From IMG/VR virus record IMGVR_UViG_2526164613_000021, positions 1-12,375 of that record: 12,375 nt of DNA. The stretch is one strand, 5' to 3'. Below are positions 3,001 to 6,000 of this stretch, piece after piece (positions within the stretch are counted from its first letter, which is position 1; each line of letters opens with the position of its first letter). Position numbers: made by a program. Origin of the DNA: a virus. Its lineage: Duplodnaviria > Heunggongvirae > Uroviricota > Caudoviricetes.

Positions 3001-6000
3001 TTACCACATCCTTATACCCTGAACATCTGTAGCATTTCATATAAGCAACTGGCAGTTAACATATAGCTTGGGTAATATTTATTTCACTTATCCTTTATGA
3101 CAAAGTTTCCTTTGGTTTGGTCATAAATACATTGTTCTTGACTTACAATCATTGATGACGTTATTGGTTCTCGTGTTAGCGGGTGCTTCCCACCGTCGCG
3201 AACCAAATGAGAAAAAGAAACCGAATCAAATAAGGTACAAACCAAAGAACCTTCTGAATTTTTAACAAACACACCTTCTTCTGGTTTATCCAGTATAATT
3301 GGGCATCGAACCGCCTCGGATGGACACTGAAGGCTCTCCGTATTAACAGAAAACTTACATTGTGATATTTTCCCCTCAATATCACCATGTGATTGTGTGT
3401 TACCTGAACCTGAAACCATTCTTAACATTATATCCCTGAGCGCTTCAGGACCACCATTAAGCCCTGTAAGTAATAATCCAGAAAGCAAACTGTTATTGCC
3501 CCCACTCGCCAGAAAGCGACCATCCGTTTCACTATATGTGATACGGACCGTCTGCCCGCCTACTGTAATTTCTCCACCGCCACTGGCGGCCATTTGAGCA
3601 CGAAGAACCTGCATTCCGGTGGAAAATGAATTGGATGCAATAGCTGATGTTAACGGCATGACAAAACTCCTGGATTTGCCCCTATATTTCCAGACATCTG
3701 TTATCACTTAACCCATTACAAGCCCACTGCCGCAGATATTCCCGTGGCGAGCGATAACCCAGCGCACTATGCGGATGCCATTCGTTATAATGCTCGAACG
3801 CCTCTGCAAGGTTCTTTGCTGCCGTTAACCCGTCTGGTTTGGGCATGATACTGATGTAGTCACGCTTTATCGTTTTCACGAAGCTCTCTGCTATTCCGTT
3901 ACTCTCCGGACTCCGCACCGCCGTGTTCTTCGGTTCAAGTCCCAACATCCGGGCGAACTGGCGTGTTTCATTAGCCCGGTAGCATGAACCATTATCCGTC
4001 AGCCACTCCACTGGAGACGACGGAAGATCGTTGCCGAAGCGGCGTTCCACCGCTCCCAGCATGACGTCCTGTACTGTTTCACTGTTGAAGCCGCCGGTAG
4101 TCACCGCCCAGTGCAGTGCCTCACGATCACAGCAGTCCAGCGCGAACGTGACACGCAGTCTCTCTCCGTTATCACAGCAGAACTCGAACCCGTCAGAGCA
4201 CCATCGCTGATTGCTTTCTTTCACGGCCACTCTGCCTGTATGTGCCCGTTTCGATGGCGGTACAGTAGGTTTTCGCTCAAGCAACAGCGCATTCTGGCGC
4301 ATGATCCGGTAAACACGTTTGGCATTGATCGCAGGCATACCATCAAGTTCTGCCTGTCTGCGAAGCAGCGCCCATACCCGACGATAACCATACGTGGGCA
4401 GCTCTCCGATAACATGGTGTATACGGAGAAGCACATCCGTATCATCAGTGTGACGACTGCGGCGGCCATCCATCCAGTCATCGGTTCGTCTGAGAATGAC
4501 GTACAACTGCGCACGCGACACCCGGAGACAACGGCTGACTAAGCTTACTCCCCCTCCCCGGGCAATAAGGGCGCGTGCGCTATCCACTTTTTTGCCCGTC
4601 CATATTCAACGGCTTCTTTGAGGAGTTCATTTTCCATCGTTTTCTTGCCGAGCAGGCGCTGGAGTTCTTTAATCTGCTTCATGGCGGCAGCAAGTTCAGA
4701 GGCAGGAACAACCTGTTCTCCGGCGGCGACAGCAGTAAGACTTCCTTCCTGGTATTGCTTACGCCAGAGAAATAACTGGCTGGCTGCTACACCATGTTGC
4801 CGGGCAACGAGGGAGACCGTCATCCCCGGTTCAAAGCTCTGCTGAACAATTGCGATCTTTTCCTGTGTGGTACGCCGTCTGCGTTTCTCCGGCCCTAAGA
4901 CATCAATCATCTGTTCTCCAATGACTAGTCTAAAAACTAGTATTAAGACTATCACTTATTTAAGTGATACTGGTTGTCTGGAGATTCAGGGGGCCAGTCT
5001 AACTCCCTATTTAAATATTCATTCCAAACACAGGGAGTCATAACAAACAGCCCCCATACATGACAACAAAAACCGGAGCCGGACTCCGGTTTTTGTGAAG
5101 CTGTCGGGCTATTTCATCCCGCCAATATTTTCCCACGTCCCGTCAGCACGCAGGATTTGCAGCGGTCTTACCACGCACTGTATCTGCTTTTTATCCGCAT
5201 CCAGTATCACCACCTGCGTGATTACCCTGTCCTGCTCCGGGATAATACCATTCTCATCGGACTCCAGAATGTCTGCCGGTCCCAGTCGCAGCTGTGCTGT
5301 AAGTAACTCCCCGTTTTCACGGTCATCATGCTTTCCGCAACCGCACAGACGCTGCATAATTTTTTTTAATATGTTCATGTCATTCTCCTGTTCTGCCTGT
5401 ATCACTGCCCACTTCATCCAGCCCCTTAACATCCTGCCACGGCCCGTCACCAAACCTGACCTGCAAATGCTGAAAAAAACCCTGAACCCGTGTGGCATCT
5501 TTGGGGTCAAGAAAGGTCAGTCCGGTGATGAGTGCGCCATCTGTATCCGGGAACCAGCCATGGCTGTTTGTCTCAATAATGTTTCCCGGCCCCAGACGGA
5601 ACCGTATTTGCGTCTCCCCCGGGTCGCCCTTCGGCCCCTGAGGTCCGGTTGCCCCCACCGGGCCAGCCGCACCTGTTTCTCCTTTCGGTCCCTGTGGGCC
5701 TGCCGGGCCTGCCGGACCAGCATCACCTGCCGGCCCCCTTTCACCGGTTGCCCCTGCCGGACCGGTGTCTCCACGCTCTCCTTTATCTCCCTTCGGCCCC
5801 TGAGGACCCGCGGGCCCCTGCTCCCCCTTTGGCCCGGGAGGCCCCACCACCGTGGGGATTCGGTTTACGGCCTCTTCCGCCGCTATCCTGCTTTGTTCCG
5901 CTGACTGTGCGCTTTCTGCTGACTCCCGGGCTTTTTCTGTTGCGGTCGTTGCATCCCTGGCTGCATTACCGGCTGCACTTTCTGCCGTCTTTTTTGACAA

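Follow-up and report, generated by a model that had tools for sequence, protein, structure and literature searches.

The stretch of DNA analysed here, positions 1 to 12,375 of the IMG/VR virus record IMGVR_UViG_2526164613_000021 (12,375 nucleotides, below called the window), carries on its minus strand a gene for a side tail fibre, stf, that contains an uninterrupted collagen-like repeat. According to the annotation of the Escherichia coli O55:H7 strain DEC5B chromosome (NZ_CP038389.1), the fibre locus belongs to the end portion of a lambdoid prophage that has its insertion site in ydfJ; positions 5050-6650, to which the similarity search of the source genome was confined, are 100% identical to that chromosome. 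The genes on the minus strand follow in the order tape measure (frameshifted), an M-like gene, L (truncated), J, lom, the fibre gene and a small gene of 89 codons, after which come an IS2 element, two effector genes of the NleG family and an IS256-family element (Table 1). The home of the fibre gene in DEC5B is in other words a lambdoid tail module with the order H, M, L (truncated), J, lom, stf, of which J-lom-stf is the order found in lambda itself. We interpret the collagen-like region as a triple-helical stretch in the shaft of a side tail fibre of EPclA type that belongs to this prophage, with a length that is evolutionarily plastic, and give this interpretation a probability of about 0.9. 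Of this, the present analysis itself demonstrated the architecture and homology of the protein, as well as the length polymorphism with its junctions.

Architecture of the fibre

The fibre protein is found in RefSeq as WP_000268937.1, a 'prophage tail fiber N-terminal domain-containing protein' with its ATG at 6594; we translated the minus-strand open reading frame (ORF) over 5380-6600 and numbered the residues from that start. Pfam recognises, in this order, phage_tail_N (PF08400, residues 3-135 on profile positions 1-133 of 134), Collagen (PF01391, E=2.6e-14) and Phage_fiber_C (PF06820, full-length over profile positions 1-64 of 64). Between the end of the N-terminal domain and the first Gly-X-Y there are exactly 116 residues, with A 31%, S 21% and E 13% (together 65%) and only 6% L/I/V/M/F/W/Y. 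The Gly-X-Y run occupies residues 251-328 of 404 in a single stretch of 26 triplets. The original prediction, made from the DNA alone, was right about the run being uninterrupted, and its 25 triplets or 75 residues at 5614-5844 should be corrected to 26 triplets, 78 residues and 5611-5844, the predicted span having lost one codon of the last triplet (GET); in the same way the short distal part that it described has 76 and not about 77 residues. Glycine in 26 consecutive triplets is vanishingly improbable, and the run is therefore not a product of chance. Its X positions hold P (54%), D/E (35%) and A (12%), and its Y positions mainly A (27%), K/R (27%), T (19%), Q (15%) and P (8%), a usage that agrees with that of the EPcl family (Table 4 in PMC3368898).

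The run is GC-rich as predicted, with a G+C content of 73% compared to 59% in the gene and 52% in the window. Long frames are also open on the plus strand, at 5095-5904 (269 amino acids, aa) and 5649-6371 (240 aa), and one could thus imagine that the real gene is one of these and that the Gly-X-Y pattern is nothing but a GC-rich simple repeat read on the wrong strand or in the wrong frame. The Pfam, PHROG and PDB matches that flank the repeat are however found only in the minus-strand frame, which is also the frame annotated in RefSeq, and we see practically no chance that such an artefact is the explanation. The two plus-strand frames, rich in Pro, Leu and Arg, were rejected as genes and are shadow frames typical of GC-rich periodic sequence.

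The domain order is the one by which Ghosh et al. 2012 defined EPclA, PfN-PCoil-Col-PfC (PMC3368898), and the window has all of it: PfN, PCoil, a single Col domain and PfC, in a lambdoid tail module. One of the EPclA proteins in their Table 3, ECO26_0887, has 404 aa with a PCoil of 116 aa and a collagen domain of 78 aa, and the PCoil of nearly all EPclA proteins has 116 aa (Tables 2-3, PMC3368898). Neither this characterised family nor the Pfam name of the C-terminal domain (PF06820) was noticed in the original prediction. Recombinant EPclA from O157 Sakai (rEPclA) is a trimer that has the circular dichroism spectrum of collagen and a melting temperature (Tm) of 42 C, its Ala/Ser region is a trimeric coiled coil with a Tm of about 52 C, and in electron microscopy (EM) the molecule appears as a hinged dumbbell; the triple helix was demonstrated on a homologue with 37 triplets (PMC3368898). 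Given an identity of about 98% to EPclA outside the indel, the window fibre probably also forms trimers that contain a genuine collagen triple helix, and by likeness to rEPclA its PCoil is expected to form a trimeric coiled coil. Ghosh et al. have already published the family along with its biochemistry and the variation in collagen length (PMC3368898), and what we add is only in the detail: a deletion series at a few in-register repeats, a 9-nucleotide (nt) slippage in O157:H7 and selection on the small PfC gene.

The N-terminal part is, as predicted, a lambda-like anchor. It shares 89% of residues 1-117 with lambda orf-401, which is the N-terminal portion of Stf, and about 92% of residues 1-93 with the collar domain of Ur-lambda gpStfN (PDB 9E7M, also 9MGH; E=1.7e-51). 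In the Ur-lambda structure twelve copies of gpStfN make up a collar at the gpV/gpM junction, which four trimeric fibres leave, and beyond the collar come, in lambda Stf, an Ala/Ser-rich coiled coil over residues 102-393, then a hinge, and at the distal end a gp37-like region with which OmpC is bound (PMC12617516). Since lambda Stf has an Ala/Ser-rich coiled coil of its own, the Ala/Ser/Glu segment, correctly seen in the original prediction, does not replace the lambda shaft as was supposed there, and is a shortened counterpart of the lambda proximal rod. Relative to lambda Stf, the exchange concerns everything distal to the rod, namely the hinge and the gp37-like part. No BLASTP alignment better than E=5.5 was found between lambda orf-314 (the Stf C-terminus) and the last 76 residues, and the two are thus unrelated, as the original prediction had it.

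It is also conceivable that a collagen-like protein in this position serves the bacterium and not the phage particle, as a surface adhesin or virulence factor like Scl1/Scl2 or Legionella Lcl. The NCBIfam models SclB, Lcl and SclA do give weak matches through the Gly-X-Y region, the locus adjoins genes for the type III effector NleG7 and another NleG, and a bacterial role was left open by Ghosh et al. (PMC3368898). The adhesin models are however far under their cutoffs on the fibre (SclB 58 bits vs 325, Lcl 44 vs 500) and match within the repeat only, the protein shows no signal peptide or cell-wall anchor on direct reading, its N-terminus is nearly that of a solved phage collar in the J-lom-stf position of lambda, and the known expression is tied to phage induction. 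We find a bacterial adhesin very improbable.

As a phage structure, the fibre would be built from three chains, with the PfN domains clamping the tail just above its tip as in Ur-lambda and the trimeric coiled coil of 116 Ala/Ser-rich residues as the proximal rod. The 26 triplets would extend it with a second rod, free of hydroxyproline and stabilised by proline in X together with charged residues, and the C-terminal PfC domain would trimerise, start the folding of the helix from its C-terminal end and occupy the tip of the fibre. The rise of a collagen helix is 0.286 nm per residue, and with this standard geometry each triplet should add 0.86 nm, giving a rod of about 22 nm for 26 triplets and about 32 nm for 37. 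The rise given by Ghosh et al. 2012 is 2.88 A per residue (PMC3368898).

Table 1. Positions of the genes, domains, repeats and other elements in the window
Feature	Positions	Strand	Basis or remark
J	7326-10802	minus	prophage annotation
lom	6659-7258	minus	prophage annotation
Terminator-like hairpin between lom and stf	6612-6631	minus	consensus scan
stf-like side tail fibre gene, 404 aa, TGA stop at 5380-5382	5380-6594	minus	ORF list, DEC5B match, Pfam
PfN domain, aa 1-133	6196-6594	minus	PF08400 E=5.4e-69
Collar/anchor part of PfN, residues 1-93	6316-6594	minus	lambda Stf counterpart, PDB 9E7M
PCoil, Ala/Ser/Glu segment, 116 aa	5845-6192	minus	composition and length as in EPclA proteins
Col domain, 26 Gly-X-Y triplets, 78 aa	5611-5844	minus	translation and Pfam
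17-nt repeat CCTCAGGGGCCGAAGGG, first copy	5789-5805	minus	exact repeat; recombination/deletion junction motif
Tandem repeat, 9-nt unit, coding strand CCGGCAGGC (encodes GPA), x2	5696-5715	minus	TRF and allele alignment
17-nt repeat CCTCAGGGGCCGAAGGG, second copy, 162 nt (18 triplets) downstream of first	5627-5643	minus	exact repeat
Distal 76 aa with PfC domain (PF06820), presumed fibre tip	5383-5610	minus	PF06820 E=2.8e-35
Small PfC gene, 89 aa, RefSeq WP_001023362.1	5109-5378	minus	PF06820 E=5.1e-36
GC-rich hairpin and U-run, probable intrinsic terminator of the stf-pfC unit	5066-5096	minus	RNA fold
IS2 (IS3-family)	3682-4955		missing from the same locus in O157:H7 EDL933
NleG-family ORF, 207 aa	3084-3707
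NleG-family ORF, 222 aa, annotated NleG7	1723-2391
IS256-family transposase	365-1573

Length variation of the collagen run

The repetitive nature of the underlying DNA, which had been predicted, was confirmed only in part: the DNA is less repetitive than had been supposed, with direct repeats in register and not a clean tandem array. TRF found a single true tandem in the Col DNA, a 9-mer present 2.2 times, which is a slippage site, and the four copies of 33 nt given by a general repeat finder are merely 67-82% identical. The longest exact direct repeat has 17 nt, CCTCAGGGGCCGAAGGG, and encodes PQGPKG, and there are three 11-mers besides. All repeat offsets are multiples of 9, and the repeats are therefore in triplet register. 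When the codons were shuffled with Gly, X and Y each kept to their own positions, the longest repeat was shorter than this 17-mer in 300 of 300 shuffles.

To describe the lengths we used two samples, one of proteins, where the PfC-bearing ones with a single Gly-X-Y run were counted among the best 120 database representatives, and one of DNA, with 80 related IMG/VR loci of which 55 have a full-length fibre gene. Overall the homologues span 4-38 triplets. The PfC-bearing representatives have 4, 5, 8, 14, 15, 16, 19, 20, 21, 25, 26, 32 or 34-37 triplets, and among the 55 full-length genes 37 triplets dominate (40 genes), followed by 27 (eight), 36 (three), 38 (two) and 20 and 4 (one each). All length variants observed are in frame. 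Collagen lengths of 27-144 aa, with differences that are multiples of three, were tabulated for single-domain proteins already by Ghosh et al. 2012 (PMC3368898).

When aligned triplet by triplet, the 46 distinct Col variants form a deletion series from the 37-triplet form, and a deletion whose ends are joined at a repeated motif suffices to derive every shorter allele from that form, the junctions being five GPQ-GPK-G(D/E) motifs, two GPV-GAT motifs or runs of GPA. Two separate alleles with 26 triplets, that of the window and that of P0001, are the result of different deletions. The step from 37 to 27 triplets is a deletion of 90 nt with the 11-nt repeat CGGCAGGCCCG at both ends, and in the step from 27 to 26 the 9-nt tandem has lost one of its CCGGCAGGC units. 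Between O157:H7 EDL933 and O157 180-PT54 the orthologous genes differ solely in the number of CCGGCAGGC copies, three and two, respectively, which is a clean slippage event inside one clone complex; the window gene has two copies, like 180-PT54. The window protein is separated from a 437-aa allele of O157:H7 by six substitutions and a single gap of 11 triplets. The variation that these alleles display directly supports the predicted hotspot for in-frame changes of fibre length, which was the central point of the original prediction and is correct. Expansion of a tandem array was considered as the main mechanism and dropped, since only the one 9-mer of 2.2 copies qualifies and most of the variation is deletion between dispersed short repeats.

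We picture the process as slippage and recombination between in-register repeats of 11-17 nt (GPQ-GPK-G, GPV-GAT, GPA) and at the 9-nt tandem, in which exchange within the gene or between the many paralogous prophage copies of a single genome would add or remove whole triplets and keep the frame. The family is widespread: of the 5426 complete E. coli genomes, 4672 contain matching places, typically two (the median) and at most 22, with 11 in DEC5B itself, so that there are ample partners for recombination between prophages. Frameshifts or truncations affect many of the related loci, and chimeras produced by deletion are frequent.

The distal domain and the small PfC gene

The only role demonstrated for PfC is trimerisation and nucleation of the refolding of the collagen helix: in recombinant EPclA it trimerises by itself and permits rapid refolding (PMC3368898). 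Binding of a receptor by PfC, which the original prediction held to be likely, may be supposed, and it may likewise be supposed that the length of the shaft or the nature of the tip changes adsorption. Sequence and profile searches of the PDB with PfC gave only matches at chance level, the best of them to a 36-residue fragment of optineurin (E=0.014). The AlphaFold2 monomer of the Stf PfC, from an alignment of 19 sequences, was unusable (mean predicted local confidence, pLDDT, 53), and that of the small PfC protein, from 33 sequences, reached pLDDT 65 and 71-78 over an all-beta core; with this latter model Foldseek found nothing at E<=0.001 in PDB or BFVD, and the top TM-scores were below 0.4. 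As the models are weak and Foldseek gave no significant match, we assign no fold to PfC. Modelling of this domain with AlphaFold failed also in a cryo-EM study of phi24B, in which the role of these fibres is called an open question (2026 preprint).

A profile search for PfC among 1.84 billion representative proteins gave 88 matches at E<=1e-3, mostly fragments, and the named ones are only from Escherichia/Shigella and Citrobacter rodentium, which suggests that the domain is restricted to a narrow group of enterobacterial phages. A few large proteins with several matching stretches were judged spurious, being CarboxypepD_reg or SprB repeat proteins. In one set of homologues from Shigella and some E. 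coli (P0078-P0120), PfN-PCoil-Col is kept and PfC is replaced by an intramolecular-chaperone domain, Peptidase_S74 (PF13884); these are of the EPclD type, and judging from their sequences the C-terminal module has been exchanged right after the collagen run. One of them, P0090, bears the source label 'collagen-like surface-anchored protein SclE [Streptococcus pneumoniae]' and is almost certainly a mislabelled or contaminated record.

The small gene downstream encodes a 27-aa leader (MNILKK..CGCGKHD..) followed by a PfC domain that is 34% identical to that of Stf (E=2e-13). Its ATG at 5376-5378 is separated from the stf TGA by one base, and an AGGAG lies within the 3' end of stf; with this spacing and a ribosome-binding site inside stf, the small gene is translationally coupled to stf, and the 1-nt spacing is kept in 77 of the 80 related loci. 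The hairpin after the small gene has a folding energy of -23.4 kcal/mol (z=-5.1, and none of 200 shuffles was equally stable), and since hairpins stand both before stf and after the small gene, the two genes form a unit. Among 54 distinct alleles of the small gene the ratio of nonsynonymous to synonymous polymorphism (pN/pS) is 0.10 overall and falls to 0.05 within the PfC domain, so it is the protein and not merely the DNA that is under purifying selection. The DNA of PfC and the small gene is found with 90-98% identity in 297 phage records, mostly of Shiga toxin (Stx)-converting phages. The 89-aa protein gave no alignment with lambda Tfa (orf-194) at E<=100. A homologue, ORF68 of Sp5, is non-essential and was proposed by Mondal et al. 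2016 to be a reservoir for tail-fibre variation (PMC5155283).

A more far-reaching idea, prompted by the conserved 1-nt coupling, the low pN/pS of the PfC part and the natural junction in P0183 described below, is that the small PfC is no leftover or silent store of DNA but is expressed and selected as a partner of the fibre and at the same time serves as a second, exchangeable tip, capping or co-assembling with the PfC trimer and being recombinable in frame onto the shaft via GGNCCGGCAG, a microhomology common to the GPA triplets and the 'LGPAD' codons of the small gene. We hold this to be doubtful; if it were true, lambdoid and Stx phages would own a built-in system of two tips in addition to a tunable shaft length.

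Several fused forms of these genes were seen among the homologues. In P0183 (4 members; DNA in L086:1-291, GCA_038404665.1, contig JAYDZQ010000147.1) 13 collagen triplets are joined in frame to a PfC of the small type, with the junction GPA / GPAD (ER-GPA/DILESD) at the shared GGNCCGGCAG, a recombinant of natural origin that lacks the distal part of the collagen, the PfC belonging to the fibre itself and the leader of the small gene. The frame is open to the first base of the contig, which leaves room for a complete fibre whose tip has been swapped, although none was seen. Chimeric ORFs in which fragments of J, Lom, a CII-like protein, another tail protein or a portal protein are fused to the small PfC gene (P0185, P0204, P0153, P0136, P0281) look like independent deletions during prophage decay that all end in this gene, and three or four of their breakpoints are grouped within about 10 codons (..GPADILESDENG..).

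A further kind of fusion involves a run of seven T in the stf coding strand (A7 on the plus strand) at 5473-5479, from which the +1 frame is open to the ATG of the small gene, over 46 codons in 72 of the 80 loci. With one T lost, a truncated Stf PfC becomes fused to a complete second PfC, as in P0003 and P0004 (494 aa). A programmed or phase-variable frameshift as a conserved mechanism was rejected, since no stimulatory signal for the required +1 shift can be recognised, the fusions are single cases in draft assemblies and the run is not conserved; it is missing in 23 of the 80 loci (GLF/GMF alleles), and 10 more have T6 by means of a synonymous GGN codon. These fusions are probably due to mutation or to homopolymer sequencing errors.

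The state of the prophage and relatives of the fibre

The prophage is defective: no K or I stands between L and J, and the DEC5B annotation gives frameshifts in both the portal gene and the tape-measure gene; in the region 10845-11427, L is truncated so that only positions 3-93 of the 206 in its profile are left. The cargo region at 365-4955, which follows downstream of the fibre genes, is broken up by insertion sequences. It is therefore reasonable to ask if the fibre gene is only a functionless relic of a dead prophage, with triplet differences that reflect neutral decay and with no role other than as recombination material for other lambdoid prophages. The clear defects of the prophage, the numerous matching places in DEC5B and other E. 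coli genomes and the many frameshifted, truncated or chimeric relatives all fit such a view. The reading frame of the fibre gene is however intact and every length variant is in frame, strong purifying selection acts on the companion gene, and the same gene pair recurs in the 297 phage records. We regard a relic as a possible explanation, though clearly the less probable one; it is compatible with the structural explanation and differs from it only on the use of the window's own copy.

Some points weigh against reading the window gene as a collagen-shafted fibre. The biochemistry of the trimer, the helix, the coiled coil and PfC would have to be carried over by analogy, coming as it does from close homologues and not from the window allele. 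The prophage being defective, this copy of the fibre cannot currently assemble onto a tail of its own. Alleles with 4-8 triplets probably have no autonomous triple helix, and a rod may then not be the right description of every allele. With regard to the tip, lambda_2B8 fibres with a related one do not recognise BamA (2026 phi24B preprint). The EPclA-type fibre with a plastic collagen shaft is nevertheless the reading that we prefer. How fast lambdoid and Stx-converting phages adsorb, and which E. coli they reach, depends in part on their side fibres, and hence so does the spread of genes for Shiga toxin and type III effectors.

Collagen-like proteins of other origins share single features with the window fibre. 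Scl1/Scl2 and other bacterial collagen-like proteins also have a hydroxyproline-free helix that is stabilised by charge and needs an adjacent globular trimerisation domain, and the collagen shaft is in this respect another example that stable triple helices can be achieved without hydroxyproline; Scl1/Scl2 are however adhesins anchored in the cell wall with an N-terminal trimerisation domain, and have no homology to the window fibre beyond the repeat. In-frame deletions between collagen-like repeat units are known from phages of Streptococcus thermophilus and from ORF8 of the Guarani/Sputnik virophages (PMC7242381), and in Guarani a deletion of 81 nt across 27-nt repeats went together with an expansion of the host range (PMC7242381). 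These proteins are unrelated to the window fibre beyond Gly-X-Y, and it is for them that a functional consequence is established.

The relationship to lambda Stf is close in the proximal half. Both have the collar or anchor domain, with 89-92% identity, followed by an Ala/Ser-rich trimeric coiled coil, both genes come after lom, and for both a role in speeding up adsorption is presumed. Lambda Stf has however 774 aa, with a hinge and a gp37-like distal domain that needs the Tfa chaperone, where the window fibre has collagen and PfC, and the place that tfa has after stf in lambda is taken by the PfC-only gene; of the features of lambda Stf the window fibre thus has the collar and neither the gp37-like C-terminus nor a Tfa downstream.

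The EPclB proteins, i.e. the lateral fibres of short-tailed Stx phages (933W L0121, Sp5 ORF67 = ECs1228, phi24B gp61), share with the window fibre a PfN-type N-terminus, a coiled coil, a collagen shaft and a PfC tip, and in Sp5 an 89-aa PfC-only gene (ORF68) follows next, as in the window. The difference is that the window gene has a single Col domain and sits in a tail module of siphovirus type. An EPclB homologue has been located on the tail by immuno-EM in Sp5 (PMC5155283), and in phi24B there are six lateral fibres (2026 preprint). The closest likeness is with EPclA (ECs2717 of O157:H7 Sakai and ECO26_0887 of O26:H11), from which the window fibre differs in having 26 and not the usual 37 triplets, a GPA/GPA deletion junction and a home in a decayed O55:H7 prophage, and with which it has in common the order of the domains, the preferences in X and Y, the GP(Q/P)-GPK-G(D/E) motif and the position in the prophage.

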